A stretch of DNA of 64,000 nucleotides from the NCBI GenBank assembly GCA_963707215.1, contig CAVPPB010000003.1, forward strand, positions 1,536,001-1,600,000. Reading direction: 5' to 3'. The notes under the pieces are model-generated. The model was not told the origin of the DNA. It saw only the letters and a program-made list of their open reading frames with translations, and did no database searches. Below, in pieces: positions 38,217 through 63,790 of the stretch. Every line of letters begins with the position of its first letter. Within the stretch, counting starts at the first letter, position 1. Made by a program: the position numbers and the translations under genes. The stretch is from an uncultured Chloroflexia bacterium. Its GTDB lineage: Bacteria > Chloroflexota > Limnocylindria > Limnocylindrales > CSP1-4.

Positions 38217-38675
38217 TCAGGCGCCGACCCGCAGGTCGACCTCGTGGATGGTCCCGTCGACGATCCGCCAGGCGCGGATCGACGGCCGGCCCGTGGCAGC
38301 GTCCGCCTCGTCCTCGCTGAGCGACACCAGGACGTACAGGGCGTCGGGATAGAAGGCCAGGCCCACGTCGGTCGGCGAGGGACGGGCGGGCGATCGCACG
38401 TGGGAGTGGACGATGGCCCAGAAGACCTCGTCGGCATCCTCGGTCTCGAGGGTCAGGCGGAGGAGGTCGGCCGGGTCGATCTCGTAGCGGTAGGGCGAGG
38501 CGGCCTTGTTGCGCGCCGGTTCCCAGCGGAGCGGTCGACCACCCTCGGCGGCGGCGCGGTCACCGACGATGAGACCGCACATCTCGTTCGGGTACTCGGC
38601 GCGGGCGTGAGCGACGAGCGCGTCGGCGAGCACCGGAGGCAGCTCGACCGAGGAAGGGCCGGGGTGGCCGGTCAC
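38217..38675 (-). CDS. mec: Mec-like JAB/M67 metallopeptidase (CysO-cysteine peptidase)
   Basis: HARAEYPNEMCG, HSHVRSPARPSPTD (JAMM motif); GTGA overlap with the cysM stop. Confidence 0.88.
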   Translation of the reverse strand: MTGHPGPSSVELPPVLADALVAHARAEYPNEMCGLIVGDRAAAEGGRPLRWEPARNKAASPYRYEIDPADLLRLTLETEDADEVFWAIVHSHVRSPARPSPTDVGLAFYPDALYVLVSLSEDEADAATGRPSIRAWRIVDGTIHEVDLRVGA

Positions 38676-39736
38676 CACCAGTTGACTCCGCCCTCCAGGT
38701 CCTCCTCCATCTCGTCGAGGTCGCGGCTGAAGGTGCCGGCCGACAGGTACTTCCAGCCGCCGTCCGGGAGGAGGGCGACGATCGTCCCTCGCTCCATGGT
38801 CTTCGCCACCCGGGCCGCTGCGACCAGGACCGCTCCGCACGACGGCCCGGCGAAGATGCCCTCCTTGAAGACGAGGTCACGCAGCGCAGCGATCGCATCG
38901 CGGTTGCTGACCAGGAACTTGCCATCGAGGAGCGTCTCGTCGTAGATCTCCGGGACGAAGCCCTCGTCGAGCGAGCGGAGACCCTGGACGTTCTCACCGG
39001 GGAGCGGTTCGGCGGCGTAGACCTTGACCCGCGGCTTGCGCTCGCGCAGGTACCGTGCCACGCCCATCAGGGTCCCACCGGTCCCGAGCCCGGCCACGAA
39101 GGCATCGATCTCCGGGCAATCCGCCAGGATCTCGGGGCCGGTCGTCTCGTAGTGGGCCAGGGGGTTGGCCGGGTTGCCGTACTGGTACGGCATGACGAAG
39201 CGGGGATCCTTGGCGACCAGGTGCTTGGCCAGCGCGATGGCGCCATTGGAGCCAAGGCGCCCCGGGGAGTCGATGATCTCCGCCCCGTACAGGGCGGCCA
39301 TCTGGCGGCGCTCGGCGGTCACGTTGTCGGGCATCACCAGGGCGACCCGGTAGCCCTTCCGGCGACCGATCATCGCCAGGGCGATGCCGGTGTTGCCCGA
39401 CGTGGGCTCGAGGATGATCGACTCGTCGGTCAGCAGGCCCCGGCGCTCCAGGTCCTCGACGAGGTACTTCGCCGCCCGATCCTTCACCGACCCGGTCGGG
39501 TTGTACATCTCGAGCTTGGCGTAGATCCGCACCTCCGGCGTCGGGCTCATCCTCGGGATGGCCACCAGGGGCGTATGCCCGACGGCGTCGAGGATGGACT
39601 CGTGCCGGCCGCCGTGGCGGGGCAGGTCCTCGTGACCGTGGAGGTGAGGGAAGGCCGGATCGTGCCCGTGACCCGGCGCGGGAGCGACGTCCCCGGCCGG
39701 GGACGTCCGCGAGGCCCGGGGTGTCGCCACGGTCAT
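38672..39736 (-). CDS. cysM: PLP-dependent cysteine synthase (CysO-dependent CysM-like)
   Basis: GHTPLV, KLE..NPTGSVKDR, EPTSGNTGIAL, YQYGNPAN, GLGTGGT, DGGWKYLS; lies next to cysO and mec. Confidence 0.9.
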   Translation of the reverse strand: MTVATPRASRTSPAGDVAPAPGHGHDPAFPHLHGHEDLPRHGGRHESILDAVGHTPLVAIPRMSPTPEVRIYAKLEMYNPTGSVKDRAAKYLVEDLERRGLLTDESIILEPTSGNTGIALAMIGRRKGYRVALVMPDNVTAERRQMAALYGAEIIDSPGRLGSNGAIALAKHLVAKDPRFVMPYQYGNPANPLAHYETTGPEILADCPEIDAFVAGLGTGGTLMGVARYLRERKPRVKVYAAEPLPGENVQGLRSLDEGFVPEIYDETLLDGKFLVSNRDAIAALRDLVFKEGIFAGPSCGAVLVAAARVAKTMERGTIVALLPDGGWKYLSAGTFSRDLDEMEEDLEGGVNWW

Positions 39737-40005
39737 CCGCCGGCCATGGCGGGCAGGATGATCACCGTGTCGGTCGGACCGACCGGCGTGGCCCGCTCCT
39801 GGAGGAAGCGGACGTCCTGCCCATCCACGTAGACATTGACGAAGCGGTTCAGCTCCCCGTCGGGCGTCAGGAGCTGGCCCTCCAGCGTCGGATAGCGGGC
39901 GATCAGGGCGGCGATGACCTCGCCGACCGTCGTCGCCTCGACCTCGACCTGTTTGTCGCCGCCGGCCGAGGCCCGCAGGACCGGCGGGATCCTCACCGTG
40001 GTCAT
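39733..40005 (-). CDS. cysO: ubiquitin-like sulfur carrier (CysO/MoaD/ThiS family)
   Basis: TVRIPPVLR..GG..RFVNVYV..DVRF..ILPAMAGG (C-terminal GG). Confidence 0.88.
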   Translation of the reverse strand: MTTVRIPPVLRASAGGDKQVEVEATTVGEVIAALIARYPTLEGQLLTPDGELNRFVNVYVDGQDVRFLQERATPVGPTDTVIILPAMAGG

Positions 40006-41279
40006 GCCCGGGACTCCGGGTCGGAGGCCACGGGCTCCGGGTCGTACGCGAGGCCCGCCGCCGCCCCGAAGCCGCCGCCGAGGACGAACGTCTCGGTCGC
40101 GCCGGTGGCAGCGGTCGCGACGGTCGCCGTCTCCAGCGGGCGGCCGGCCTTCCGTGCCTCGACCGCCGCGTCGGAGCAGGTCGGGCAGGCTGGGTCCCGC
40201 CTGAGCTTCAGCTCGGTGAACGACGCGTCGAGCGCGTCGAAGAGGAGCAGTCGCCCGGCCAGGGAGTCGCCGATGCCGAGGATGAGCTTGAGCGCCTCGT
40301 TCGCCTGGAGCATGCCCATGATCCCGGGCACGACGCCCAGGACGCCTGCCACGGAGCAGCCCGGGGCGAGCTCGGGCGGCGGCGGCGTCGGGTAGAGGCA
40401 GCGGTAGCACGGACCCTCGAACGGCTTGAAGACCGTCAGCTGGCCCTCGAACCGGAAGACCGAGGCATGGACCACCGGGATCCCGGCGGCGACCGCGGCG
40501 TCGTTGAGCAGGTAGCGGGTCTCGAAGGTGTCGGTTCCGTCGAGGATGACGTCGTAGCCGGCGATGATCCGCTCGACGTTGTCGGCGACCAGCATCTCCT
40601 CGTGACCGACCACGGTCACCTCGGGGTTGATGGCGTTGATCGTCTGCCGCGCCGACTCGACCTTCTGGGTGCCCACGCGATCCGTCGTGTGGAGGATCTG
40701 GCGCTGGAGGTTGGAGACGTCGACGACGTCGAAGTCGACGATGCCGACCGTGCCGACCCCGGCCGCGGCCAGGTACAGGGCCGCCGGCGACCCGAGCCCC
40801 CCGGCACCGACGAGCAGGACCTTGGCGTCGAGCAGCCTGCCCTGGCCCTCGAGACCCACCTCGGGGATGAGCAGGTGGCGGCTGTAACGCCGCTTCTGGG
40901 CGTCGGTCAGGATCCGCGGCACGTCCCAGTCGAGGCCCTGGGCCTTCCATGACTGGAAGCCGCCGGCCATCGAGGCGACGTTCGTGTAGCCGAGCTGCTG
41001 GAGCGTCTGGCCGGCGAAGAGCGAGCGGATCCCACCGGCGCAGTAGATGACGACGGGACGGTCGCGGTCGGGGATGGCGGCCTCGATGTCCTGCTCGAGG
41101 TAGCTCTTGGAGACGTGGAGAGCACCGGGCGCGTGTCCGGCCTCCCACTCGATCTCCTCGCGGACGTCGAGCAGGACGGTCCGCGGATCGGCGGCCCGGG
41201 CGGCATCGGCCTCGAGCGCGCTGACCTCGCGGACCTGCTCGCGGGCCTCGCGAAGGAGATCGGCGTACGACTTGGGCAT
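40002..41279 (-). CDS. moeB: MoeZ/MoeB-type adenylyltransferase with N-terminal rhodanese domain
   Basis: Rhodanese (LLDVRE..W..GHAPGA, YCAGGIRS); RYSRHLLIPEVG, VGAGGLGSP, SNLQRQ, CYRC, CPTC. Confidence 0.92.
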   Translation of the reverse strand: MPKSYADLLREAREQVREVSALEADAARAADPRTVLLDVREEIEWEAGHAPGALHVSKSYLEQDIEAAIPDRDRPVVIYCAGGIRSLFAGQTLQQLGYTNVASMAGGFQSWKAQGLDWDVPRILTDAQKRRYSRHLLIPEVGLEGQGRLLDAKVLLVGAGGLGSPAALYLAAAGVGTVGIVDFDVVDVSNLQRQILHTTDRVGTQKVESARQTINAINPEVTVVGHEEMLVADNVERIIAGYDVILDGTDTFETRYLLNDAAVAAGIPVVHASVFRFEGQLTVFKPFEGPCYRCLYPTPPPPELAPGCSVAGVLGVVPGIMGMLQANEALKLILGIGDSLAGRLLLFDALDASFTELKLRRDPACPTCSDAAVEARKAGRPLETATVATAATGATETFVLGGGFGAAAGLAYDPEPVASDPESRA

Positions 41280-41431
41280 CTGGTTGGTGGCTCCGATGGG
41301 GCGACGGGCTGCCGCCGGAGCGGCAGGGCGGTGGTGATCGACGCGTCCGTGGCGTGTCCGCTAGGAGTTCGGGCGGGGTGGGGCCACGGTTTCCCGCTGC
41401 CGGTCGCCGGGGCGGCGGGGGCTCCGCCGGC

Positions 41432-41482
41432 TCAGCGATCCGGCCGCCGACACCTGCAGCGGCCCAGGCGGTCCATCGTCAT
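41432..41482 (-). CDS. putative cysteine-containing leader peptide MTMDRLGRCRCRRPDR
   Basis: ATG overlaps the sufU stop (ATGA); CxC codons; ends 152 nt before moeZ; GRCxC motif shared with 63226..63309. Confidence 0.6.
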   Translation of the reverse strand: MTMDRLGRCRCRRPDR

Positions 41483-41916
41483 GCCCCGCGCTCGGCAGGG
41501 TGGGCATCCGGGGCCACGCCGGCGGCAGCTTCGTCCTGGGTCGGCTGGATGCCTGCCTCGACGAGGGCCTTCTTGAGGGTGTCGTAACTGAGCATCGCGC
41601 ACTTGAGCCGGGCCGGGCTGATCTCGATCCCCAGCAGGTCGAGGAGATCGTCGGCCCGGAAGGCGGCCACGTCGGCGACCGGCTTGCCCTTGATCTCGTC
41701 GGTCAGAAGGGAGGCGCTGGCCTGGCTGATGGCACAGCCGCGCCCGGTGAAGCCGACCTGGTCGACGACCCCGTCGGTGACGTGGATCTGGAGGGTGATC
41801 CGGTCACCGCAGAGCGGGTTGTTGCCCTCGATGCTCGCCGACGGCTCCTCCAGCACCCCGAAGTTGTGGGGCCGCCGGTAGTGCTCCAGGATGTAGTCGC
41901 GGTAGAGGTCGTCCAC
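41479..41916 (-). CDS. sufU: SUF system NifU-family Fe-S assembly protein
   Basis: DDLYRDYILEHY..P.NFG, NPLCGD, GRGCAISQASASL, RLKCAML. Confidence 0.93.
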   Translation of the reverse strand: MDDLYRDYILEHYRRPHNFGVLEEPSASIEGNNPLCGDRITLQIHVTDGVVDQVGFTGRGCAISQASASLLTDEIKGKPVADVAAFRADDLLDLLGIEISPARLKCAMLSYDTLKKALVEAGIQPTQDEAAAGVAPDAHPAERGA

Positions 41917-41954
41917 GGTTCCCTGTGCTGTCGATCCGGCCGCTGTGGCCAGGG

Positions 41955-41981
41955 TAATCCCGACCGAATGCGTCGGGATTA
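41955..41981. promoter_or_regulatory. Rrf2/IscR-type palindromic operator upstream of sufU
   Basis: TAATCCCGAC-cgaatgc-GTCGGGATTA, a perfect 10-bp inverted repeat immediately downstream of a TAGCAT -10 box on the minus strand. Confidence 0.75.
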
Positions 41982-44900
41982 GGATGCTAGTCCCGGGGGC
42001 GGGGTCGCGTCAACGGCAGAGGACCCGACCGGTGCCGCACGTCTCGGATCCTCCAGCGCGGCCGCAGGTCCGGCCACAGGCGGCCCGGCCATCGCCATGT
42101 CGAGGCGATCGAGCCATGGCCGGGCCTCGACCCGCTCGAAGACAGCGTGCGCCTCCTCGGCGATCGCCCGGACGGCCGGATCACCGGCGCCGACGAGTGT
42201 GACGAGCGTCGTCGACTCCAGCGCCGCTTCGAAGTCCTCGCCTCGCTCGAGCATCCGACGGATAGCATCGCGATAGGCGGCGACGGCCTCCTGCCCGCGC
42301 CCCTCGAGCGCGGCGACCCCGCCGTTCGCGGCGGCCCGATAGAGCTGCAGGTCCGTGCTGCTCCCCGGGAGCTGGTCGAAGCGAGCCGCCACCCGGCGGG
42401 CACGGTCGATATCGCCCGCCCAGAGCGCCGCCCGGCCGGCGACGCGCAGGCAGACGTGGGCGAACGCTGAGAACAGATCGACAGCGCCGAAGGCCTCGTC
42501 GAAGGCCTTGTCGAGATCACCGGCCTCGATCAGCCGGAGGGCTCGAAGGATGAGGAGGACCTGTGCATCACCCGGGTCGGTGGCGTCCTGGAGCAGCGCC
42601 TCGAGCCGGTCCATGGACTCGCCGACCGGGTCGCCTCGATGGATGCGCAGGAGGGTGACGTAGGTCAGGATCCGCTGCTCGTCACTGGGGTCGCTGATCG
42701 CCGAGAGTGCTTCCTCGCCGGCAGCGATCGCGCCATCCCAGTCGTCGCCGGCCGCGAACGACGCGACCATGACGTTCGATACGAGCCAGTTGGCCATCAT
42801 CCGGTGGCCGACCCTGCGAGCGAGGGCGAGAGCGTCGATCCCGACCTGCTGCGACCGCCGCGGGTCATCGCCGCTCACGATCGAGCCGAGATTGGCCAGG
42901 GCGCGGAGCTCGGCCCCGACGAATCCTCCTTCCCGGGCGGCCCGGACCGCCGCCTCCAGCAGCGCGGCGGCTTCCCGCCGACGCCCGAGATATCCCAGGG
43001 CCGAGCCCTTGTTGTTGAACGTCTCGGCCACGACCAGCTCGAGATCGAGCCGCTCCGCGATGGCGAGCGCCCGGTCGGCGACCTCGATGGCTCGAGCCGA
43101 CTCGTCCGCCCGCATCAGCGCCCGCGACAAATTCGAGAGCACCTCCGCGCGGACCACCGGGTCGGCGTCCTCGGTCAGGTCCCCGAGGGTCGCTTCGAGC
43201 ATGACCCTCGCCTCGGCGATCCGCGACGCGTCGAGCAGGATCGCGCCATGCAGCGCCCGGGCCCGGGCGGCATCCATCTGATTGCCGGCGGCTTCGTAGG
43301 TCGCGGCCGCACCCTCGGCGAAGGCCATGGCCTCGGCGTAGCTCGAGCCGGCATCAGCGGAACGGGCGGCCCGGAGCATGAGCTTGGCCCGCTCAAGCCC
43401 TTCCGGGGTCACCTCGAGCGCCTGCTGGAGATGGGCGACGGCCTGCTGGTGGGCGCCCAGCGTGGCCGCTCGCTCGGCGGCTGCCCGGAGGGCGATCCGG
43501 GCCTGGCCTGCGACGGCATCGGCCTCGGGTCCGGGACTCGAGGCCCGGTGCGCGTCGAGATAGTGCGAGGCCAGCGCCCCGGCGAACTCCTCGTCGCCGA
43601 GCGTCTCGTACCAACGGGCCACGGCCAGGTGTCGGTCGCGGCGGTCGCGCCTGGCGAGGGTCCCGTACGCCACCTCGCGGATGAGCGATTGGACGAAGGC
43701 GTACTGGCCGCGCTCGGGCGAGCGCGGATCGGCCTCCAGCGAGAGCAGCTCGCGGCGGACGAGGGTGGCCAGCCGCGGCTCGAGATCGGCGACGTCGTCG
43801 CCGGTCGTGGAGGCCAGGCCCTCGAGCGTGAAGGTCTGCCCGAGCACCGACGCCGCCTGGACGAGCGCTCGGTCGGCTGCCTCCAGCGCATCGAGCCGGG
43901 AGGCGATGAGCGATCGGAGGGTGTCCGGGATCGCCAGGTTCGCCAGGTCGCCGACCGGCCGGTATGCCCCGTCGGTCATGGCCAGGCGTCCGTCGGCGAC
44001 GAGCGAGCGGACCGTCTCGACCGCGTACAGGGGGATCCCGTCGGCACGGTCGAGGATGGCGTCGGCGGCCGAGTCCGGGAGGCCTGGGACGAAGCCGTCG
44101 AGGAGCTCGTGCATCGCCTCATGCGAGAGCGGCTCCAGAGCCAGCGTCGTCAGGTTGCGCGCCGCCGAGCCCCAGCCGGCCCGACGTTCGAGCAGCTCCG
44201 GGCGAGCGAGCGTCACGACCAGGATCGGCGCGTTCCGCGACCAGGTCAGCAAGTGCTCGATGAAGTCGAGGAGTCCGGTGTCGGCCCACTGGAGGTCCTC
44301 GAACAGGAGGATCGTCGTGCCCTGGTCGGCGATCCGCTCGAAGAAGATGCGCCAGGCGGCGAACAGGACGTCGCGACCACCGGCCGGCGCCGGCTCCAGG
44401 CCCAGGAGCGTCAACAGGGCCGGCTCGACCCAGCGGCGGTCCTCGTCGGTCTGGACGTGATCGGCGACCGTCGCCGCGATCCGCTCTCGGGTCGTCGCCT
44501 CGTCGTCGGTCTCGGCCAGGCCCGCCCGGCGGCGGACCATCTCGCCCAGGGCCCAGAAGCTGATCCCCTCGCCGTATGACGGGGAGCGGCCGCGGTGCCA
44601 CCAGAGCGTCTCCGACACCCCGTCGGCGTACTTCTCGAACTCCCAGGCCAGCCGGCTCTTGCCGATGCCGCCGGGGCCGGTGATCGAGACGAGCCGGGCC
44701 TTGCGATCGCGGCCGGTGGCCGTGAGCTGGTCCTTGAGGAGCCGGAGCTCCTCATCACGACCGACGAAGGGCGGCTCCGGGAGGTCCGAGCGGCCGCGGC
44801 CGCCGCGCTCGGCGACGACCCGGAGCGCCCGCCAGGCCGGCACCGGCGCGGCCTTGCCCTTGAGGAGCTGCTCGCCGGCCTCCTCGAAGGCGATGGCCGA

Positions 44901-45575
44901 GCTCGCCGCCCGCTGGGTCGTCTCGCCGACCAGGACCGTGCCCGGCGGTGCGACAGACTGGAGACGGGCGGCCGTGTTGACGAGATCCCCGGCGACGAGG
45001 CCCTGGTTCGTCGCCCCGATCGTCACCGCGGCCTCCCCGGTCAGGACGCCGCAGCGGGCCTGGATCGTGGGGCCGAGGGCGCGGACGGCATCGGCAAGCT
45101 CGAGCGCGGCCCGGACGGCCCGCTCGGCATCATCCTCCTGGGCGACCGGGGCACCCCAGACTGCCATGACCGCGTCGCCGATGAACTTCTCGACCGTCCC
45201 GCCGTAGCGCTCGATGGTCTCGCGGCCGAGGTCGAAGTAGCGGGTCAGGAGCTCGCGGACCTCCTCGGGGTCCTTCTCCTCGGCAAACGGGGTGAACCCG
45301 ACCAGGTCGGCGAAGAGGACGCTGACGAGACGGCGCTCGGCGACGGGCGCGGTCCCGGAGGTCCGCCCGGTGCCCGCTCCGCCGGCCGTTCCCGCGCCGC
45401 CGGCCGTCGCCGGTGCGTCGGCACCCGGGAGCAGCGTGGCGCACTCGCCACAGAACTTCTCGCCGGGCTGGTTGGCGGCCCCGCAGGTCGGGCAGGTGAC
45501 CGCGAGCGGCGCGGCGCACTCGGAGCAGAACTTCCGCCCCGCTCGGTTCGCCATGCCGCAGTTGCCACAGATCAT
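41979..45575 (-). CDS. STAND-type class III nucleotide cyclase (double zinc ribbon + cyclase + AAA ATPase + TPR), paralog of 23739..27302
   Basis: CGNCG..FCSEC..CPTCG..FCGEC; ERRLVSVLFADLVGFT, EKFIGDAVMA, GDLVNTAARLQ; GPGGIGKS; LLFEDLQWAD. Confidence 0.92.
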   Translation of the reverse strand: MICGNCGMANRAGRKFCSECAAPLAVTCPTCGAANQPGEKFCGECATLLPGADAPATAGGAGTAGGAGTGRTSGTAPVAERRLVSVLFADLVGFTPFAEEKDPEEVRELLTRYFDLGRETIERYGGTVEKFIGDAVMAVWGAPVAQEDDAERAVRAALELADAVRALGPTIQARCGVLTGEAAVTIGATNQGLVAGDLVNTAARLQSVAPPGTVLVGETTQRAASSAIAFEEAGEQLLKGKAAPVPAWRALRVVAERGGRGRSDLPEPPFVGRDEELRLLKDQLTATGRDRKARLVSITGPGGIGKSRLAWEFEKYADGVSETLWWHRGRSPSYGEGISFWALGEMVRRRAGLAETDDEATTRERIAATVADHVQTDEDRRWVEPALLTLLGLEPAPAGGRDVLFAAWRIFFERIADQGTTILLFEDLQWADTGLLDFIEHLLTWSRNAPILVVTLARPELLERRAGWGSAARNLTTLALEPLSHEAMHELLDGFVPGLPDSAADAILDRADGIPLYAVETVRSLVADGRLAMTDGAYRPVGDLANLAIPDTLRSLIASRLDALEAADRALVQAASVLGQTFTLEGLASTTGDDVADLEPRLATLVRRELLSLEADPRSPERGQYAFVQSLIREVAYGTLARRDRRDRHLAVARWYETLGDEEFAGALASHYLDAHRASSPGPEADAVAGQARIALRAAAERAATLGAHQQAVAHLQQALEVTPEGLERAKLMLRAARSADAGSSYAEAMAFAEGAAATYEAAGNQMDAARARALHGAILLDASRIAEARVMLEATLGDLTEDADPVVRAEVLSNLSRALMRADESARAIEVADRALAIAERLDLELVVAETFNNKGSALGYLGRRREAAALLEAAVRAAREGGFVGAELRALANLGSIVSGDDPRRSQQVGIDALALARRVGHRMMANWLVSNVMVASFAAGDDWDGAIAAGEEALSAISDPSDEQRILTYVTLLRIHRGDPVGESMDRLEALLQDATDPGDAQVLLILRALRLIEAGDLDKAFDEAFGAVDLFSAFAHVCLRVAGRAALWAGDIDRARRVAARFDQLPGSSTDLQLYRAAANGGVAALEGRGQEAVAAYRDAIRRMLERGEDFEAALESTTLVTLVGAGDPAVRAIAEEAHAVFERVEARPWLDRLDMAMAGPPVAGPAAALEDPRRAAPVGSSAVDATPPPGLAS

Positions 45576-45789
45576 CTGGCCCCTCCCGTGGAGTGCGAAG
45601 GGTAGCGGCTGAGGGCGGGCCGGGCCAGCCCGGGTGATCCGGCCACCCGGCCGCGTGGTCCGGCGAACCGCTCGACGGGCAGAGGGCAGGGCGGCGGGCA
45701 GCTCCTTGGCGGGGTTGCCCGTCTACGCATGCCGCCGGGGCGGTCACGGTGGCGTCCCGCGCTGACGTCCAAGGCGCTCAGCGCGACAT

Positions 45790-45955
45790 CTGTCGGGTAC
45801 CAGTCACGCTGGTGCTATCGCGGATCGGTGACGGTCCCCCGGTGAAAGCACCGCGGTGCCAGCGTGGGCGTCCCGCATGGCACCAGCTCCACTGGTGCCG
45901 CACAAGGATCGCCGCCCGGGGACGGCATAGCACCAGCCCCGCTGGTACGGCACAG
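45790..45955. repeat. three copies of palindrome GYACCAG-N5-CTGGTRC with conserved flanks
   Basis: Cores at 45797-45815, 45880-45898 and 45930-45948; copy 1 is inverted relative to copies 2 and 3. Confidence 0.75.
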
Positions 45956-46085: not shown

Positions 46086-47384
46086 CTATCCCCCGAAGAG
46101 GCGCTGGACCTCCTGCAGCCCGGCGACGAGGGCGTCGACGTCCTCGCGGGTCGAGTAGACGTTGAACGAGGCGCGGACCGTCGCGGAGAGGTCCAGTCGC
46201 TCGTGGAGGGGCATCGTGCAGTGGTGTCCCGCCCGGACGCACACCCCGGAGCGGTCCAGGACCTGGGCCACGTCGTGCGGATGGACGCCGGGGACGTTGA
46301 ACGGGATGACCCCGCTCCGGAGGTCGGGGTCCAGCGGGCCGTACAGCTCGATCCCGGGCACGTCGCGCGCCAGCACGTCGAGCGCATAGGCGACGAGCTC
46401 TCGCTCGTGCTCGCGGACCCTGTCCATGCCGACCGCCATCAGGTACTCCGCGGCCGCCCCCAGCCCGATCGCCGCTGCGATATCCGGCGTCCCGGCCTCG
46501 AACTTCCAGGGCACGTCGTGCCACTCGGACCGCCGGAGGTGGACCTCGCGGATCATCTCACCGCCACCCATGAATGGCGGCATCGTCTCGAGCAGTTCCT
46601 TCCGTGCCCAGAGGGCACCGGAGCCGGTCGGCCCGAGCATCTTGTGGCCGCTGAACACGTAGAAGTCGGCCCCCAGGGCCTGGACGTCGACCGGCAGGTG
46701 GGGAACGGCCTGGGCGCCGTCAACGAGGACGAGCGCCCCGGCGGCGTGGGCCCGATCGACGATCTCGCGAACCGGGTTGATCGTCCCCAGCGTGTTGCTG
46801 ACCTGGACGAAGGCCACGAGCTTGGGCTTGAGCCGCAGCAGGACGTCGAGGACGTCGAGCCGCAGGATCCCGTCGTCGGTCATCGGGATGAACTCGAGAT
46901 CGCCGTCCTGCTCCTGGACCAGGAGCTGCCAGGGCACCAGGTTGGCGTGGTGCTCCATCTCGGTCAGGACGATCGCGTCGCCGCGCCCGATGTTCCGACG
47001 ACCCCAGCTATGGGCGACCAGGTTGACCGCCTCGGTCGCGTTGCGGACCCAGACGATCTCGTGGGGATCCGGGGCGTTGACGAACCGGGCGACGGACGCT
47101 CGGGCCGACTCGTAGGCCGCGGTCGCCCGCTCGCCGATCGCGTAGATGCCGCGGTGGACGTTCGCGTTGTACTCGCGATAGTAGGTGTCCATCGCCTCGA
47201 TGACCGCCAGCGGCTTCTGGCTGGTCGCGGCCGAGTCGAGGTACACGAGCGGCTTCCCGTGGGCCGTCGTCCCGAGGATCGGGAAATCGGCCCGCAGGGC
47301 ATGGGGATCGAGTCGGGCTCCGGGCCCGGCGGGCTGCGCCGGTGTCGGGGTCGGGGAGTTCGCGGCTCGGGCCTCGACGGTCAT
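46086..47384 (-). CDS. sufS: SufS family cysteine desulfurase
   Basis: LVYLDSAATSQKP, ANVHRG, EMEHHANLVPWQ, DGAQAVPH, FSGHKM, FEAGTP, VRAGHHC. Confidence 0.95.
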   Translation of the reverse strand: MTVEARAANSPTPTPAQPAGPGARLDPHALRADFPILGTTAHGKPLVYLDSAATSQKPLAVIEAMDTYYREYNANVHRGIYAIGERATAAYESARASVARFVNAPDPHEIVWVRNATEAVNLVAHSWGRRNIGRGDAIVLTEMEHHANLVPWQLLVQEQDGDLEFIPMTDDGILRLDVLDVLLRLKPKLVAFVQVSNTLGTINPVREIVDRAHAAGALVLVDGAQAVPHLPVDVQALGADFYVFSGHKMLGPTGSGALWARKELLETMPPFMGGGEMIREVHLRRSEWHDVPWKFEAGTPDIAAAIGLGAAAEYLMAVGMDRVREHERELVAYALDVLARDVPGIELYGPLDPDLRSGVIPFNVPGVHPHDVAQVLDRSGVCVRAGHHCTMPLHERLDLSATVRASFNVYSTREDVDALVAGLQEVQRLFGG

Positions 47385-47417
47385 GGGACGGCGTAGCCTA
47401 GCGTGACCGGGCGGCCC

Positions 47418-48290
47418 TCAGCGGGCCACCTCGACCGGCTCCGGTGCGTGAGCGCTCAGCGCCTCGTCCGAGACGTCGGCCGCCAGCCCGTGCTCGTGGA
47501 GGACCGGGCCGTAGCCCTCGTCCTCGAGCCGCAGCGCGAGATCCCGTCCGCCGCTGGTGACGATCCGGCCCTGAGCCAGGACGTGGACCACGTCCGGCTT
47601 GATGTGGTTCAGCAGGCGCTGGTAGTGGGTGATGAGCAGGACGCCCATGTCCGGGTTGAGCATCGCGTTGACGCCCTCGGCGACGATCCGCAGGGCGTCG
47701 ATGTCGAGCCCCGAGTCGGTCTCGTCGAGGATCGCCATCTCGGGCTCGAGGACGGCCATCTGGAGCATCTCCAGGCGCTTCTTCTCGCCGCCCGAGAAGC
47801 CCTCGTTGACATACCGGGCGGCGAAGGCCTCGTCCATCTTGAGGAGGGCGAACTTGTCCCGGACCTTGCGCCGGAACTCGCCCATCGTGATCCCGCCGCG
47901 GGTCGGGTCGGTCGGGTCCACGTCGGGGTCCTTGTCGACGCCCTGGAGCTTGGCGTTGAGCGCCGAGCGCAGGAAGCTGGCGACGGAGAGGCCCGGGATC
48001 GCCGTCGGGTACTGGAAGGCCAGGAAGAGCCCCATCCGGGCCCGCTTGTCGGCCGAGAGGGCCAGGATGTCGACGCCCTTCCAGAGGACCTCGCCGCCCT
48101 GGACCTGGTAGGCCGGGTGGCCCATGAGGGCATACGCCAGCGTCGTCTTGCCCGAGCCGTTGGGGCCCATGATCGCGTGGACCTCGCCCTTGCGGACGGT
48201 CAGGTCGATGCCCTGGAGGATCGCCCGCTCGGGCTGGCCGGCGGGAGCGACCCGGAGGCCGCGGATGACGAGGTGCTGGTCGTTGCTCAC
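47418..48290 (-). CDS. sufC: Fe-S cluster assembly ATPase
   Basis: GEVHAIMGPNGSGKTT, GLFLAFQYP, NEGFSGGEKKR, ILDETDSGLDIDAL, ITHYQRLL. Confidence 0.95.
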   Translation of the reverse strand: MSNDQHLVIRGLRVAPAGQPERAILQGIDLTVRKGEVHAIMGPNGSGKTTLAYALMGHPAYQVQGGEVLWKGVDILALSADKRARMGLFLAFQYPTAIPGLSVASFLRSALNAKLQGVDKDPDVDPTDPTRGGITMGEFRRKVRDKFALLKMDEAFAARYVNEGFSGGEKKRLEMLQMAVLEPEMAILDETDSGLDIDALRIVAEGVNAMLNPDMGVLLITHYQRLLNHIKPDVVHVLAQGRIVTSGGRDLALRLEDEGYGPVLHEHGLAADVSDEALSAHAPEPVEVAR

Positions 48291-48319: not shown

Positions 48320-48853
48320 TCAGGCGGTGACCGCCTCACGGGGAGTGGTCGGATGCTGGCCGTTGTCGGACGTCCGGTTGGCGAGGCCCTCAAGGGCGAT
48401 CGCCCGGGACGGGACGAGGTCGGCCAGGGTGATGGAATCGAGCGATTCGGCGATCGCGTCACGGATCCTGATCCATAGCAGGTTGACCGTGCAGCGCGAC
48501 GTCCGGTCGCAGCCGGGCAGGTGGTCCGGCTCCTCGGAGGCGCAGACCATCGGGGCGATGGGGCCCTCCAGGGCCCGGAGGACATCAGCCATCGGGATGT
48601 CGCCCGGTGGTCGCGAAAGCTGGTAGCCGCCGCGCGCGCCCCTCGTGCTTGCGACCAGACCAGCGTCGCGGAGGGCGATGGCCAGCTGCTCGAGGTACGG
48701 GCGTGGCAGGTCCTCGTCGCCGGCGATCTCGGTCAGGGATGCCGGACCGGATCCGTAGCGACGGCCGAGCTGGACCATGAGCCGCACGCCGTACTCGCCC
48801 TTCGTGCTGAAGGCGAGTGCTCCGGTGCCGTGGTACGTCTGGCGCTGGCTCAA
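48320..48853 (-). CDS. Rrf2 family transcriptional regulator (IscR-like, 3 Cys); start uncertain (TTG 48853 or 48883)
   Basis: FSTKGEYG, YLEQL, GLVASTRGARGGYQL, LEG..C-x10-C-x5-C..W..L..ITLADL. Confidence 0.9.
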   Translation of the reverse strand: MSQRQTYHGTGALAFSTKGEYGVRLMVQLGRRYGSGPASLTEIAGDEDLPRPYLEQLAIALRDAGLVASTRGARGGYQLSRPPGDIPMADVLRALEGPIAPMVCASEEPDHLPGCDRTSRCTVNLLWIRIRDAIAESLDSITLADLVPSRAIALEGLANRTSDNGQHPTTPREAVTA

Positions 48854-48894
48854 GGACCGGGATCTCCAGGACAGGGTGACCAAGACGCTCGGTC

Positions 48895-48919
48895 AATCCC
48901 GACGGATCTTGTCGGGATT
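48895..48919. promoter_or_regulatory. Rrf2/IscR-type palindromic operator upstream of rrf2-sufC-sufS (autoregulation)
   Basis: AATCCCGAC-ggatctt-GTCGGGATT, a perfect 9-bp inverted repeat adjacent to a TAGACT -10 box on the minus strand. Confidence 0.8.
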
Positions 48920-49050
48920 AAGTCTAGGGCGGGTCCGGCGGTGCGTCAATCAAGGCACGCCCGAAGGGATGGCCCGGGCAGGGACTTCCGTACCGGGGGC
49001 GGGAGGTGGTCGGAGAGGTACACAGAGGGTCGTTGGGAGGATGTCCCGCC

Positions 49051-50667
49051 ATGTCGACATCGCAGCGCCGTCGTCTTGACCAGCACGACGCGCGCGCCAT
49101 CGAGCGACCCGCGATCCTCGGGCTGCTGATCGCCTACGTCACCGGCTTTGGTGCCTTGGCGGCAGTCGGCGCCTGGGTCGCCCTGAGCACGACCCAGGAT
49201 CGGGCCCAGGTCGCACCGATGGTCGCCGGCGGGCTCGGCGCCCTGGCCGGCATCGTGGGCCTCACGCTCGTCATCGTGGCCTGGCGGATCCACCGACGGT
49301 CGTCTGCCCTCGCGGGCGAGCTCGCCGACATGCGCGCGGCGTACGACCGCGCGCGTCTGGACGCGCTCATCGATGGACTGACCGGGCTGGGCAACCATCG
49401 CGGATTCCAGGAGGAGCTGGATGCCCGGATCGCGGTGGCCCGGGACGAGGGGACGCCGGTCGCCCTGCTGATGCTCGACGTGGATGACCTGAAGAGGACG
49501 AACGAGCGTCGAGGTCACACGGCCGGCGACGAGGTGCTACAGACCGTCTCGCTGATCCTCCGGGCCAGCGCGCGACGGGGCGATCGGGCCTTCCGGATCG
49601 GCGGTGACGAGTTCGCCATGTTGCTGCCGAACACGGATCTCGCGGCCGCCGACCTGCAGGCCCGCCAGATCCTGGCGGCCGCCCTGAGCGGCAACCACGG
49701 CAGTGGCGGGCCGGTCTCGCTGACCATCGGGGTGAGCGCCTTCCCCGAACCGAGCGGCGGGCGCCAGCCGCTGATGATCCATGCCGAGGCAGCGCTGCAC
49801 TCGGGCAAGCGGCACGGCCGGACGATCGTCGAGCGGTTCGACCCGGGACGCCATGGCATCGCCGACGACACGCGTTCCCTGGTCGAGCTGGAAGAGTCGG
49901 TCGCCCGGGTCGCCGAGGGCGACCTGCTCCGGCCCGTCTACCAGCCCATCGTCTCGCTCGCCACCGGCCACGTCATCGGCTTCGAGGGCCTCGTCCGCCT
50001 CTCGGCCGACGCGCCGTTCAGCGACCCGTCGAGCCTCTTCGTTGCCGCCGAGGCGACGCGCCGGACGATCGAGATCGACATCGTCGCCGCGAGCACCGTG
50101 CTCGCCGGCGCGACCGGGCTGCGGCCGACGGACTACCTCGCTGTCAACCTCTCGCCCCGGACCCTCGAGGCTGATGCCTTCAGCCCGCTCGAGATCCTGG
50201 CCCTGGCCCGCCGCCACGGCATCGCCCCGACGCAGCTCGTCGTGGAGCTCACCGAACGCGAAGCCGTGGAGGACCTGGAGCGCCTGCGGGCGGCCGTCGG
50301 GACGCTCCGGCGCCACGGCGTCCAGGTGGCGATCGACGACGTCGGAGCGGGCAACGCCGGGCTCCGGCTCATGAGTTCGATCGACTTCGACATCATGAAG
50401 ATCGACCTGTCGCTCGTGCGGGCCGCAGCCAGCAACGAGCCCTCGGAGGCCGTCCTGCGGGCCCTCGGGCGGATGGCCGAGGAGCGCGGCCGGCGGATCG
50501 TCGCCGAGGGCATCGAGACGACCGACCACCTCGAGGCCGTCCTCGAGCTCCGCTACCACGCGGGCCAGGGCTACCTCCTTGGACGGCCCGGCCCGGCACT
50601 GGTGACCGACCGGGTGCCGCTCTTCGACCTGGTCGCGGACGAGACCGGAGCGGTCCCCGCCGCCTGA
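49051..50667 (+). CDS. membrane-bound GGDEF-EAL diguanylate cyclase/phosphodiesterase
   Basis: 2 TM; DGLTGLGNHR, LDVDDLK, I-site RRGD, RIGGDEF; YQPI, EGLVR, AIDDVGAG, KID, VAEGIET, GQGYLLGRP. Confidence 0.93.
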   Translation: MSTSQRRRLDQHDARAIERPAILGLLIAYVTGFGALAAVGAWVALSTTQDRAQVAPMVAGGLGALAGIVGLTLVIVAWRIHRRSSALAGELADMRAAYDRARLDALIDGLTGLGNHRGFQEELDARIAVARDEGTPVALLMLDVDDLKRTNERRGHTAGDEVLQTVSLILRASARRGDRAFRIGGDEFAMLLPNTDLAAADLQARQILAAALSGNHGSGGPVSLTIGVSAFPEPSGGRQPLMIHAEAALHSGKRHGRTIVERFDPGRHGIADDTRSLVELEESVARVAEGDLLRPVYQPIVSLATGHVIGFEGLVRLSADAPFSDPSSLFVAAEATRRTIEIDIVAASTVLAGATGLRPTDYLAVNLSPRTLEADAFSPLEILALARRHGIAPTQLVVELTEREAVEDLERLRAAVGTLRRHGVQVAIDDVGAGNAGLRLMSSIDFDIMKIDLSLVRAAASNEPSEAVLRALGRMAEERGRRIVAEGIETTDHLEAVLELRYHAGQGYLLGRPGPALVTDRVPLFDLVADETGAVPAA

Positions 50668-52175: not shown

Positions 52176-52537
52176 CACCACATCAGGCCGGCGTCGCGGG
52201 GATCCCAGCGCTCGGCCAGCAGCGTCACCTTGACGTCATGGTCGACGACGGACTCGGCCTGCTCCTTGACCTGCTGGATCATCGACCCGGCGTAGGGGCA
52301 GAACGGCGTCGTCAGGATCATCTTGATCTCGGTCGACCCGGGGCCGAGGACGATCTGCTTGATGAGGGCGAGCTCGACGACGTTCATCCCGATCTCCGGG
52401 TCGACGACGGCCCGCAGGGCATCGAGGATCGCCAGCTCGGTCGCCCGGCGCTCGGGGTCGAAGGCGGGCGCGATTCCCGGCTCCGGGGACCCGGCGGTCC
52501 CGGACGCGGTCGCGGTCTCGGTTGAGGGATCGGTCAT
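52175..52537 (-). CDS. DUF59 metal-sulfur cluster assembly factor (SufT-like)
   Basis: ALRAVVDPEIGMNVVELALI, MILTTPFCP. Confidence 0.9.
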   Translation of the reverse strand: MTDPSTETATASGTAGSPEPGIAPAFDPERRATELAILDALRAVVDPEIGMNVVELALIKQIVLGPGSTEIKMILTTPFCPYAGSMIQQVKEQAESVVDHDVKVTLLAERWDPRDAGLMW

Positions 52538-52560: not shown

Positions 52561-52586
52561 AAATCATAGCATCGAGGTCGGGATTA
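52561..52586. promoter_or_regulatory. Rrf2-type half-site overlapping an extended -10 box upstream of the DUF59 gene
   Basis: Minus strand reads TAATCCCGAC-ctcgatg-CTATGATTT, which contains TGcTATGAT. Confidence 0.5.
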
Positions 52587-54562: not shown

Positions 54563-54588
54563 CGTCGGGCCGCCGCGCGGCGCGGGGC

Positions 54589-57376: not shown

Positions 57377-57469
57377 CACGCGGACCGTTCGGCGGTGGGC
57401 GGGCGGCCGGATGGGCCGGCGCAACGGGGCGCCGATCGGATGATCGCCGGCTCGGGCATCATGGGGACG

Positions 57470-58582: not shown

Positions 58583-58643
58583 CGGCCCCGGGTCCCGGCC
58601 TCGGCCGCGGCGGCGCGTCGCGCCCCTGATGGCGCGTGGTGGC

Positions 58644-60149: not shown

Positions 60150-60245
60150 GGCGGGCATTATCGTGGCGCCGGGCCCGAGGCGGATGGAGCCGAAAGACCC
60201 GCCGACAGCAGCCGGCATGCGATCCGGACCAGGAGGAGGGCATCG

Positions 60246-61406: not shown

Positions 61407-61415
61407 GGTCCGCCT

Positions 61416-62261: not shown

Positions 62262-62304
62262 GCGCGCCGGCCCGCGGCGCCCGCAGCTCGGCGCCCGCGG
62301 CGCG

Positions 62305-63162
62305 TCATCCGCCGGCGGACCGCTCGATCGGCACGCCGACCATGCTCCCCCACTCGGTCCAGCTTCCGTCGTAGTTGCGGACCCGCGGGTAGCCGAGCAG
62401 CTCGTGGAGGACGAACCAGGTGTGCGACGAGCGCTCGCCGATGCGGCAGTACGCGATGACGTCCCTGTCCGCCTTGACGCCCTTCGCCCCGTAGAGATCG
62501 CGGAGCTCGTCGGCGCTCTTGAAGCGACCATCCTCCGCGACGGCCTGGGCCCACGGGATCGAGGCTGCGCCCGGGATGTGGCCGGCCCGCTGGGCCGTCT
62601 CGCTCATGCCGGGTGGGGCGATGACCTCGCCGGCGAACTCGGCCGGGCTGCGGACGTCGACGAGGACGAGGTTGGGATCGCCGAGTCTCGGCAGGATGTC
62701 GTCGCGGAAGGCCCGCGTCGAGAAGTCGGCCGGCGGCAGCTCGTAGGCGGTCTCCGGGTAGGTCGGGGCATCGACCGAGAGCGCGAGCCCGCGGTCAAGC
62801 CAGTAGCGGCGCCCGCCATCGAGGATGCGCACGTCCTTGTGCCCGTAGAGTCGCAGCTGCCAGTACGCCCAGGCGGCGAACCAGTTGTTGTTGTCGCCGT
62901 ACAGGACGACGGTCGTCTCCGGCCCGATGCCACTCTTCGACAGGAGCCGGCCCAGGTCCTCGCGGCTGGCGATGTCGCGACGGATCCCGTCCGACAGCTG
63001 GCTCGTCCAGTCCCAGCCGATGGCGCCGGGGATGTGGCTCTGGTCATAGGCCGTCGTGTCGACATCGACCTCGACGAAGCGGACCGAGGGATGGTCGAGA
63101 TGCTCGAGCGCCCAGTCGGCGCTGACGAGGGCCCGATCGTGGCCGGTGATCTTGGCGGTCAT
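62305..63162 (-). CDS. sulfurtransferase (tandem rhodanese, CysA/SseA-like)
   Basis: LVSADW, HIPGA x2, YGDNNNWFAA, DVRSPAEF, YCRIGERS, NYDGSWTEWG; SD AAGGAG. Confidence 0.94.
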   Translation of the reverse strand: MTAKITGHDRALVSADWALEHLDHPSVRFVEVDVDTTAYDQSHIPGAIGWDWTSQLSDGIRRDIASREDLGRLLSKSGIGPETTVVLYGDNNNWFAAWAYWQLRLYGHKDVRILDGGRRYWLDRGLALSVDAPTYPETAYELPPADFSTRAFRDDILPRLGDPNLVLVDVRSPAEFAGEVIAPPGMSETAQRAGHIPGAASIPWAQAVAEDGRFKSADELRDLYGAKGVKADRDVIAYCRIGERSSHTWFVLHELLGYPRVRNYDGSWTEWGSMVGVPIERSAGG

Positions 63163-63225
63163 GGGATCTCCTTCGCGGGTGGTGGCCGTGCGCCACCGGT
63201 GCGGGGACGTCGAGGGGATCGGGGG

Positions 63226-63309
63226 TCAGGGGCGTCGGCGGGTCCTGCGAGCGGGGTCGCGGACCCGCCAGGGACACGCGCAGCGGCCCACCGGACGTCG
63301 CTCAACCAT
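63226..63309 (-). CDS. putative cysteine-containing leader peptide MVERRPVGRCACPWRVRDPARRTRRRP
   Basis: ATG overlaps the stop of the upstream gene by 8 nt; GRCAC; hairpin 63237-63269 follows the Cys codons; ends 63 nt before the sulfurtransferase. Confidence 0.55.
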   Translation of the reverse strand: MVERRPVGRCACPWRVRDPARRTRRRP

Positions 63310-63757
63310 CGCCGGTCGGTCGGTCCCGGCGGCTGAAATCCAGGAGCACTTCCCGGCAGGCGTCCTCGGCGCGCCGGGCCTGGCCGACGATCCAGGGATC
63401 CACTCGCGAGCTGTCCTCGATGGCGACCGTGGCCCCGTACGGGCCATCCTCGACGACGATCCCGGAGGCGTTCCGGTAGTCGGCCATCCAGTTCGCCTGG
63501 AGCTGGAGCACGACGTCGGTGACGACGGCTACCGGGAAGTGCCAGTCGAGCCAGGCCGCGTCCAGGCGGGCCGCGACGTCGGCCAACCGCACCGGGTCGC
63601 CCCGCTCGAGACGGGCCAGGAGGTCGATGACCCGGAGGGTCGTGAACGGGTCCCCCGACTCGGCGACCGTCGGCGGCTGGATGGACGGGTCCGGCAGGCC
63701 GGCCGGCGCCTCTCGAAGGACGAGACGACCGATCTCCAGAGGCGGGACGTCGGTCAC
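63302..63757 (-). CDS. hypothetical protein
   Basis: 151-aa protein-like ORF with SD AGGAG; first gene of a unit with the sulfurtransferase. Confidence 0.75.
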   Translation of the reverse strand: MTDVPPLEIGRLVLREAPAGLPDPSIQPPTVAESGDPFTTLRVIDLLARLERGDPVRLADVAARLDAAWLDWHFPVAVVTDVVLQLQANWMADYRNASGIVVEDGPYGATVAIEDSSRVDPWIVGQARRAEDACREVLLDFSRRDRPTGDG

Positions 63758-63765
63758 GGCGGCTG

Positions 63766-63790
63766 AACTCCTACTAATCCGATAGGGATA
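63766..63790. promoter_or_regulatory. degenerate Rrf2-type operator
   Basis: AACTCCTAC-taatccg-ATAGGGATA (6/9 match to each consensus half); AT-rich island 4 nt downstream of TGcTATCCT on the minus strand. Confidence 0.5.

Follow-up and report, generated by a model that had tools for sequence, protein, structure and literature searches.

Candidate two-layer control of sulfur-supply genes in a Limnocylindrales bacterium by an IscR-like Rrf2 operator and cysteine-codon leaders inside operons

We analysed a stretch of 64,000 nucleotides (nt) from the genome of an uncultured Chloroflexia bacterium of the order Limnocylindrales (positions 1,536,001 to 1,600,000 of contig CAVPPB010000003.1 in assembly GCA_963707215.1), here called the window, which has a G+C content of 70-76%. 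Two operons in the window, sufU-moeZ-cysO-cysM-mec (locus A) and a gene for a 151-amino-acid (aa) protein followed by a rhodanese gene (locus B), share a layout in which all parts are located on the minus strand: a promoter with a palindrome, a first gene, a short open reading frame (ORF) that begins on the stop codon of the first gene and encodes the motif G-R-C-x-C, and the sulfur genes. An earlier note on this DNA, made from the sequence alone, had described this repeated layout, and all four of its elements are present at both loci, and the layout is conserved in relatives. We think it somewhat more likely than not, with a probability of roughly 55%, that the layout reflects a two-layer control of sulfur supply, in which an IscR-like Rrf2 protein would act at transcription initiation and stalling of ribosomes on Cys codons would act on the distal genes.

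The real reading frames were chosen via their third-position G+C content, and they were named from matches in Pfam and NCBIfam (Table 1). Scans of the own genome cover the 3.26-Mb assembly, which is 84.8% complete. For the comparisons with relatives, the sufU-moeZ junctions were taken from 30 loci, with sufU located upstream in 29 of them, and the junctions 3' of the 151-aa gene were taken from another 30 loci, in 20 of which the rhodanese gene comes next. The leaders between sufU and moeZ are called set A (26 used in the RNA tests) and the leaders between the 151-aa gene and the rhodanese gene are called set B (nine used).

The candidate operator is a 25-bp palindrome of 9-7-9 architecture, AATCCCGAC-N7-GTCGGGATT, located behind the promoters of sufU, rrf2 and sufB. 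The window contains two exact copies, at sufU and rrf2, while about 0.05 are expected, and the whole genome contains three copies at up to one mismatch and the same number at up to three mismatches, with none for the reversed control. The box at rrf2 starts 1 nt after the TTGACG/TAGACT promoter, and the box at sufB, which is located on another contig, overlaps the -10 element about 40 nt 5' of the gene. A matrix inferred from 12 boxes upstream of sufU in the relatives, leaving out the own genome, ranks the three strong boxes (rrf2, sufU and sufB) first in the genome, with scores of 37.3 (box A, in front of sufU), 34.6 and 27.9 bits. The fourth best site, with 17.3 bits, is a box at a SufT-like gene in the window, in which the left half-site is perfect and the right half is placed over the sequence TATGAT. 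Among the relatives, 27 of 30 loci have a box within 200 nt 5' of the gene for the Rrf2 orthologue, and 13 of 30 have one 5' of sufU. In our own comparison, the arms match the IscR type-1 consensus ATASYYGAC-N7-GTCRRSTAT, as quoted in PMC3899308, at 14 of 18 positions. The half-sites drift without compensating changes, as for example in GTCGGAATT facing AATCCCGAC, a pattern more in keeping with a DNA site than with an RNA hairpin. The palindrome thus has, as far as sequence comparison can tell, the properties of a real genome-wide operator with type-1 architecture at the promoters of genes for iron-sulfur (Fe-S) cluster biogenesis. A separate half-site at G000:C1:341383-341407 (L064 1584-1608) scores 10.2 and 18.0 bits with two matrices and is located about 25 nt 5' of an unannotated ORF.

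The Rrf2 protein encoded in the window is recognized by PF02082 (128.6 bits, cut-off 30) and TIGR00738 (118 bits, cut-off 73.3), and it contains three cysteines in the pattern C-x10-C-x5-C. Exactly three cysteines, arranged as C-x(9-14)-C-x5-C, are also found in all 30 orthologues. Because the box stands at the promoter of the orthologue in nearly all of the loci, the three cysteines are kept and the arms resemble IscR type-1 sites, it is well supported on comparative grounds that the neighbouring three-Cys Rrf2 protein has its operator in this palindrome. The putative regulon would also take in rrf2-sufC-sufS and, on the other contig, sufB, and the SufT-like gene probably belongs to it as well. 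The earlier note had included loci A and B, both of which are retained here, although the regulon seems to be wider than first described.

The short ORFs, of which the earlier note had described the two copies in the window, were likewise found to be conserved. In 25 of the 29 sufU-moeZ junctions of the relatives, a short ORF begins at position -1 (ATGA or GTGA), +2 or +5, counted from the stop codon of sufU. It consists of 3-17 unconserved codons followed by (G)-R-C-x-C, and it ends with a stop codon 1-10 codons, usually four, past the second Cys codon. Measured from the sufU stop, the Cys codons are offset by 2 modulo 3 in 25 of 25 leaders, and this frame is kept across 11 distinct lengths. 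Between the 151-aa gene and the rhodanese gene, the ORF begins at -5 (ATGnnTGA) or -1 and reads ...GRCxCP.RAR... in 13 of 20 junctions of the relatives, and in this set 7 to 30 codons separate the motif from the stop codon. The motif is also retained where the codons differ: L044 has the synonymous codons GGT CGT TGT, and L016 has kept C-L-C with other codons, while L038, L040 and L051 carry CCxC. Cys makes up 0.68% of the codons genome-wide, and the two ORFs in the window read C-R-C and C-A-C. By position, translation of the short ORFs would begin at the stop codon of the preceding gene, and the sole promoter-like site is located about 500 nt before that point. We consider it well supported, from comparisons across the relatives, that the short ORFs are real, translated and tied to sulfur genes.

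The DNA core GGCCGCTGCNNGTGTC occurs in the window at the two leaders only. Regular-expression scans of the own genome for C-x-C ORFs were too noisy and were replaced by a scan with a matrix of 41 nt, built from 35 leaders of the relatives alone. In the own genome, this matrix identified two sites only, with scores of 35.8 and 29.2 bits, while the next best site scored 14.8 bits, and in both cases the gene that follows the leader encodes a rhodanese domain. Within the own family, 37 of the 91 genomes sampled contain an exact match to the 14-nt core. A scan of public genomes with the 14-base core gave, among the matches listed, mostly chance ones, and 2 of the 80 loci fetched from these listed matches (L132 and L133) scored as genuine. 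They are located on one contig of a metagenome-assembled genome labelled Chloroflexia, which has two copies of the leader, reading GRCRC, 717 nt apart. The gene order is a PALP (cysteine-synthase-like) gene, leader 1, an unknown ORF, leader 2 and a beta-carbonic-anhydrase-like ORF, and leader 1 is stop-coupled (ATGgcTGA) to the end of the PALP gene. This suggests that the leader module moves among sulfur genes, perhaps beyond its own family. In a class-wide search, the matches to the core outside the own family numbered 5 of 92 and 4 of 103, about equal to the frequency of the reversed control pattern, and a spread beyond the family is therefore unsupported by that search.

The RNA around the Cys codons may form two mutually exclusive hairpins. 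The sequence GGGCCGC before the Cys codons is complementary to a segment that begins 5-6 nt after the UGU codon (GCCGGCC for the moeZ leaders, GCGGGCC for those of the rhodanese gene), and this middle segment is also complementary to the next one, GCCGGC or GGCCCGC, in both leader types. At locus A, GGCCGC can pair with GCGGCC/GCCGG, which may alternatively pair with the following GCCGGC, and the stop codon is placed between the arms. Counted by hand, 22 of 26 leaders have a hairpin directly after UGU, and its loop contains the stop codon or is close to it. By eye, the arrangement at locus B recurs in the relatives with variable loops. Such a pair of exclusive hairpins, the second of which usually carries the stop codon in its loop, seems, from base complementarity, to represent the geometry of a ribosome-read attenuator. 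Single-sequence folds of the two leaders in the window are no better than those of shuffled sequences (z -1.55 and -0.41), and no Rfam family matched the two leaders or the boxes, either at the gathering threshold or at E values up to 10.

Further downstream, a hairpin called P2, just 5' of the moeZ ribosome-binding site, covaries among the leaders: 14 cells are changed on both sides, compared with 5.2 in shuffles, and none of 500 shuffles reaches 14. Controls in which P2 was slid along the alignment all score lower. Analogous hairpins are visible by eye before the rhodanese gene's ribosome-binding site in the relatives. The possibility, suggested by eye, that GGGCCGCUG of the short ORF pairs at long range with CGGCAGCCC, which comes after P2, was dropped because L040 and L042, in which P2 is altered, show no matching change. 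The untranslated spacers between the short ORFs and the distal genes are about 90 nt long and C-rich, with 48% C and 27% G in set A and 46% C and 30% G in set B, and C exceeds G in all 26 leaders of set A and all nine leaders of set B. Such C-rich, G-poor spacers appear to have the composition of rho utilization (rut) sites, at which Rho loads.

In the proposed mechanism, the Rrf2 protein would serve as an IscR-like repressor on the 9-7-9 palindrome, placed on or just 3' of the -10 element. Its targets would be rrf2-sufC-sufS, sufB, sufU-moeZ-cysO-cysM-mec, probably the SufT-like gene and, in a weakened form, the operon of the 151-aa gene and the rhodanese. If the boxes work like IscR type-1 sites, these promoters would be repressed by the protein with its cluster and de-repressed when the cluster is lost. 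In the second layer, ribosomes that end the first gene, sufU or the 151-aa gene, would restart at the overlapping ATGA or ATGnnTGA and read the short ORF, of which G-R-C-x-C is the sole conserved part. When Cys-tRNA is scarce, they would stall on the two Cys codons and mask the 5' arm of the exclusive GC hairpins, so that the leader refolds and expression of the distal genes, moeZ-cysO-cysM-mec or the rhodanese, increases. When cysteine is ample, the ribosome would instead proceed to the stop codon, which is placed in the hairpin loop, and expression of the distal genes would remain low. For the output, termination or polarity of the Rho type within the untranslated, C-rich spacer is the likeliest route; alternatively, translation or RNA stability may be controlled through the hairpin beside the ribosome-binding site.

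We regard Cys-codon stalling as the probable sensor, and favour Rho for the output, because of the attenuator geometry, the C-rich spacers and the precedents in Actinobacteria and mycobacteria. Rrf2 binding, the Fe-S signal, the sensing of Cys-tRNA, the output step and the AND logic are all what we infer from these patterns. A broader proposal, which is tentative and which we consider doubtful in its full form, is that the family carries intra-operonic Cys sensors, in which stop-coupled G-R-C-x-C ORFs, tuned through their rare AGG and UGU codons, split Rrf2/Fe-S operons into two parts. The proximal part would respond to Fe-S status only, whereas the distal part would be AND-gated, by shortage of both Fe-S clusters and Cys-tRNA, with a Rho output on the C-rich spacer. 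Such leaders might then constitute a second, independent "Cys ribulon" outside the mycobacteria, placed in series with a transcription factor.

Several observations weigh against the two-layer scheme, beginning with the operator. The Rrf2 protein reaches the superfamily model only: it is below the cut-offs of the IscR models TIGR02010 (86.9 bits, cut-off 207.55) and NF008110 (72 bits, cut-off 275) and of the CymR model, which is the best named match (126.5 bits, cut-off 195). It is also below that of suf_reg_Xantho (68.8 bits, cut-off 110.65). Furthermore, the genome encodes two Rrf2 paralogues, at C3:55372-55767 (38% identity) and C3:1612524-1612901 (32% identity); the latter is located about 12.5 kb past the end of the window. 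The box at locus B is weak, as 6 of 18 arm positions are unlike the perfect box, and with the sufU-derived matrix it scores 5.3 bits and ranks 21st of 3.26 million positions. Its right arm overlaps the 151-aa gene's ribosome-binding site, which may account for part of its conservation and could add an effect at the RNA level. Of the palindromes claimed in the earlier note, the one at locus A is thus borne out by the strong and conserved boxes, but the one at locus B depends on the relatives. In these, the sufU-derived matrix was applied to the 230 nt 5' of the 151-aa gene with a threshold of at least 5 bits, and a box was found in 16 of 20 loci with the rhodanese downstream, in 0 of 10 loci without it and in 0 of 120 control windows. 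The box in the relatives comes after a conserved extended -10 element (gTGCTATCCT). A matrix built only from the sites at the 151-aa gene in the relatives has the rrf2 and sufU boxes of the own genome as its top matches, and with this matrix the box at locus B ranks fourth genome-wide. Because of these orthologous sites, the palindrome at locus B seems to be the decayed orthologue of a genuine box.

It is improbable, in our judgement, that the palindromes are bound by something other than the adjacent Rrf2 protein, even though box A begins where the upstream 1198-aa gene has its stop codon, the right arm at locus B includes GGAG of the ribosome-binding site, the 151-aa protein, which is predicted to bind DNA, is encoded directly behind such a box, and the Rrf2 paralogues are present. 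Against this stand the recurrence of the box at the promoter of the Rrf2 orthologue itself, its overlap with the -10 element at sufB and the SufT-like gene, the match to IscR type-1 sites in both architecture and sequence, and the drift of the arms without compensation, along with our own reading that the arms at locus B give only about five RNA pairs.

The second layer of the scheme faces objections of its own. Three of the 29 set A junctions (L049, L055 and L062) lack the canonical ORF, L062 having an ORF with one Cys, and at a 26th set A locus, L057, the core is present while the ORF was missed by regular-expression matching. The canonical ORF is also lacking in 7 of 20 junctions of set B. 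The leaders in the window have only two Cys codons, which are non-adjacent, whereas the mycobacterial criterion is at least two consecutive ones. The moeZ and rhodanese genes may have internal promoters of their own, and no terminator hairpin with a U-tract was found in 41200-42100 or 63100-64000 (0 sites). Masking of the RNA in silico by a stalled or terminating ribosome did not consistently change the accessibility of the ribosome-binding site, in what is a weak thermodynamic test; with the footprint of the stalled ribosome, the values were 0.49 to 0.51 for the 26 leaders of set A and 0.45 to 0.48 for the nine leaders of set B. RNAalifold, applied to a MAFFT alignment, gave five invariant pairs only and zero covariation in the hairpin at the Cys codons. 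Finally, TGC-AGG-TGT is near-invariant despite containing two rare codons (AGG is 5.7% of the Arg codons and TGT 13% of the Cys codons), and the x codon varies at its first and second positions and keeps G at the third. Since the nucleotides are conserved beyond what the peptide needs, constraints at the RNA level coexist with coding, and they could even be primary over it.

If they were primary, the GGGCCGCUGCnnGUGUC element and its hairpins would be a structured RNA, such as a riboswitch-like sensor or a site for a protein or small RNA, and the ORF would merely be tolerated. The codon pattern just described speaks for this alternative, and so do the covariation in P2 and the predicted exclusive GC hairpins, which are kept in both leader types though their middle arms differ (GCCGGCC versus GCGGGCC). 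We nevertheless think it quite unlikely, as the frame to the upstream stop codon is kept in 25 of 25 leaders over 11 lengths with starts that overlap that stop, an in-frame stop codon is maintained a few codons past the motif, the motif persists in L044 with synonymous changes and in L016 with other codons, no Rfam family matches, and the motif hairpin shows no covariation. Another alternative accepts translation of the ORFs but not the reading of Cys-tRNA: G-R-C-x-C might be an arrest peptide of the tnaC type, responding to free cysteine or sulfide, or the ORF might be a coupling relay that keeps Rho off the spacer. The motif is indeed fixed 4-5 codons before the stop codon in most set A leaders with a conserved ...PA end, which recalls arrest peptides, the spacers are C-rich and resemble rut sites, and just two non-adjacent Cys codons are present. 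This alternative is also unlikely, as the variable distance from motif to stop codon in set B is unlike that of arrest peptides acting at the stop codon, and as the hairpin arm GCCGGCC falls on the codons of the ...PA end, which may therefore be a constraint at the nucleotide level. In addition, three relatives have extra Cys codons (CCxC), and the downstream genes make or mobilise cysteine sulfur, as befits a sensor of Cys supply. Lastly, the ORFs might encode functional basic CxC micropeptides for the handling of sulfur or metals rather than act in cis, given that the C-x-C pair is kept and that they are always placed beside sulfur-transfer genes. This is highly improbable, since the N-terminal part is free in both sequence and length (3-17 codons before G-R-C), the C-terminal tails are unlike between the leader types, and the conserved part has just five residues, which coincide with the RNA hairpins. 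Overall, we continue to prefer the two-layer scheme, with Cys-codon stalling as its sensor.

The first gene of locus B encodes a protein of 151 aa, which is present in 52 of 61 sampled genomes of the order, some of them only about 1 Mb in size. The protein has no match in Pfam at E ≤0.001 or in NCBIfam at E ≤1e-5, and hence no match to a PadR sequence model. The AlphaFold model, based on an alignment of 30 sequences, has a predicted local distance difference test score of 90.6; three helices are followed by a beta hairpin, and the C-terminus is a long helix. The top structural matches, over residues 26-146, are PadR and Pex proteins, with Z scores of 8.4 (root-mean-square deviation 4.1, 101 aligned residues), 8.2 and 8.0; values near 8 are borderline according to the tool's own note, and the Foldseek E value is 4e-3. 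The borderline matches agree among themselves, and the best score in the ESM Atlas, 0.76, is taken as a lead only. The PadR/Pex-like fold makes the protein more likely to be a regulator than an enzyme, and the structural model suggests that it is likely a PadR-type winged-helix DNA-binding regulator rather than an enzyme or carrier for sulfur or Fe-S clusters. The earlier note had proposed a sulfur or Fe-S factor, and the predicted structure does not favour that role. A cysteine in the last helix, C134, is invariant, and the protein is possibly a thiol-based regulator.

Table 1. Positions of the genes, boxes, short ORFs and hairpins of the two loci and of the associated suf genes in the window.
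Feature	Position	Strand	Description
sufU promoter, TTGACG-18-TAGCAT	41984-42013	-	Sole sigma-70-like site in 41200-42100; 0.0 expected in shuffles
Rrf2 box A, AATCCCGACgcattcgGTCGGGATT	41956-41980		3 nt 3' of the -10 element; overlaps TAA stop of the 1198-aa gene
sufU	41479-41916	-	NifU_N; TIGR01994 SufU 116.3 bits, cut-off 92.5
Short ORF A, 16 codons	41432-41482	-	MTMDRLGRCRCRRPDR, then stop; ATG overlaps sufU TGA as ATGA
Cys codons of short ORF A	TGC 41456-41458; TGT 41450-41452	-	
Alternative hairpins around Cys codons, locus A	41424-41464	-	5 invariant pairs
Hairpin P2	41302-41328	-	CCCUGCCG-loop-CGGCAG, then CCCGUCG; just 5' of moeZ ribosome-binding site
moeZ-like adenylyltransferase gene	40002-41279	-	Rhodanese 28-113, ThiF 132-366; NF006444 555.9 bits, cut-off 449
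cysO	39733-40005	-	90 aa, ThiS-like, ends GG; ThiS 51.8 bits, cut-off 22.5
cysM-like gene, pyridoxal phosphate enzyme	38672-39736	-	PALP; cysKM 336.5 bits, just below cut-off 344.15
mec-like gene, JAB deubiquitinase-type protease	38217-38840	-	Prok-JAB residues 71-192, 75.9 bits, cut-off 25
rrf2	48320-48883	-	
sufC	47418-48290	-	
sufS	46086-47384	-	
Rrf2 box at rrf2 promoter	48895-48919		After TTGACG (48944-48949) and TAGACT (48921-48926)
Fourth, half-conserved box, AATCCCGACctcgatgCTATGATTT	52561-52585		5' of the SufT-like/FeS_assembly_P gene; overlaps -10-like TATGAT
SufT-like FeS_assembly_P gene	52175 to ~52537	-	ATG near 52537
Locus B extended -10 element, TGCTATCCT	63795-63803	-	
Locus B degenerate box, TATCCCTATcggattaGTAGGAGTT	63766-63790		Right arm overlaps ribosome-binding site AGGAG of the 151-aa gene
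151-aa protein gene	63302-63757	-	Predicted PadR/Pex-like winged helix; invariant Cys134
Short ORF B, 27 codons	63226-63309	-	MVERRPVGRCACPWRVRDPARRTRRRP, then stop; ATG overlaps upstream stop as ATGgtTGA
9-bp hairpin, locus B, GGCGGGUCC...GGACCCGCC	63237-63269	-	5' arm can alternatively pair with GGGCCGC just before the Cys codons
Two-domain rhodanese sulfurtransferase gene	62305-63162	-	Two Rhodanese stretches; 3-mercaptopyruvate sulfurtransferase model 125.6 bits, cut-off 250

The distal part of locus A encodes all four components of the CysO-dependent cysteine synthesis set (MoeZ, CysO, CysM and Mec) together. The moeZ/cysO and cysO/cysM junctions are ATGA overlaps, and the real start of the mec-like gene is probably located further downstream than that of the reading frame in Table 1. 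In the MoeZ-like enzyme, the rhodanese domain is N-terminal and followed by ThiF, as in the architecture of PRK08762, and the relatives align from residue 1. The suf cluster is split between sufS and sufU by the 1198-aa gene (41979-45575, minus strand), which encodes a double zinc ribbon, an adenylate/guanylate cyclase domain, AAA_16 and TPR; in at least one relative, G018, the spacing between rrf2 and moeZ is about 2.9 kb, which leaves no room for this gene. A GGDEF-EAL gene (49006-50667, plus strand) is divergent from the rrf2 promoter, and the 123-bp intergenic region contains the Rrf2 box. The SufT-like gene is followed by a cobalamin adenosyltransferase gene. The span from 38217 to 63790 also takes in many genes without relation to the layout. 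Elsewhere in the window, a c-di-GMP-II-GAG riboswitch aptamer, RF03169, is located at 27430-27515 on the plus strand (66.2 bits, gathering threshold 40), and it is the sole Rfam match in the window at the gathering threshold.

What is described here joins an IscR-like regulon to putative Cys-sensing leader ORFs, which represent a new variant in their architecture. In another high-GC family, many genera share this differently built Cys leader, which is placed in series with the IscR-like regulon. If the scheme is true, one operon would be divisible into differently regulated halves without a second promoter, and the demand for Fe-S clusters would be tied to the CysO/thiocarboxylate route to cysteine and to the rhodanese. 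The analysis also offers a concrete candidate regulon of five promoters and two leaders for bacteria that are mostly uncultured, and the structural model points to a likely PadR-like regulator role for a widely conserved protein without family annotation. A full-text keyword search of open-access papers and preprints, supplements aside, returned no description of stop-coupled C-x-C leaders or of the present Rrf2 regulon.

To our knowledge, Cys-sensing leader ORFs have been demonstrated in mycobacteria only, at the 5' end of leaderless transcripts. In M. smegmatis, Cys-rich short ORFs attenuate the cysA2 rhodanese operon, and translational attenuation with polar effects was shown for this operon (bioRxiv 10.1101/834739, which PMC13236596 lists among its references as Mol Microbiol 2020). 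As in this mycobacterial "Cys ribulon" (Ms5788A, cysA2), the leaders of the window are unannotated short ORFs with Cys codons near their end, placed before genes for cysteine synthesis or sulfur transfer, including a rhodanese of the thiosulfate-sulfurtransferase type, and they likewise have GC-rich structures and occur at several loci per genome. However, the ORF here is, by position, located inside the operon on an upstream stop codon rather than at the 5' end of the mRNA, it contains C-x-C rather than a run of Cys codons, and different genera have kept the adjoining G-R as well as many of the nucleotides. A response to Cys is here a prediction from sequence, and the masking in silico did not unmask the ribosome-binding site.

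Cys leader peptides without terminators have also been predicted upstream of cys and cbs operons in Mycobacterium, Propionibacterium and Bifidobacterium, for which Rho-dependent attenuation was proposed (PMC1262725). The present leaders are similar to these, as far as that paper describes them, in having Cys codons near the stop codon and no U-tract terminator, and the C-rich spacers fit the idea of a Rho-dependent, tna-like mechanism. They differ in their taxa, in having moeZ-cysO-cysM-mec or the rhodanese downstream, in the coupling to a stop codon and in the conserved, predicted pair of hairpins around the Cys codons. Similar to trp-type attenuators, such as that described for ilvB1 of M. 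tuberculosis (PMC13236596), the leader has codons for the controlled amino acid, hairpins that, from base complementarity, may be exclusive, and a stop codon set so that a terminating ribosome would cover the middle element. Unlike in those attenuators, no U-tract terminator was found, and the leader is placed between two genes, so that the distal part alone would be gated.

For the first layer, the closest parallel is IscR, whose type-1 operator consensus in E. coli and Pseudomonas is ATASYYGACTRWWWYAGTCRRSTAT (quoted in PMC3899308). Both proteins belong to the Rrf2 family and have three cysteines, both are associated with an autoregulated operon for Fe-S biogenesis, and in both a 25-bp 9-7-9 palindrome with a ...CCGAC/GTCGG... 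core overlaps or abuts the promoter, a likeness known from sequence and, for IscR, taken from the quoted consensus. The present protein differs in being below the cut-offs of the models for IscR, CymR and the Xanthomonas SUF regulator, and in being linked to a split SUF rather than an ISC system, and its putative regulon, unlike that of IscR as described there, extends to the CysO-dependent cysteine pathway and to a rhodanese operon.

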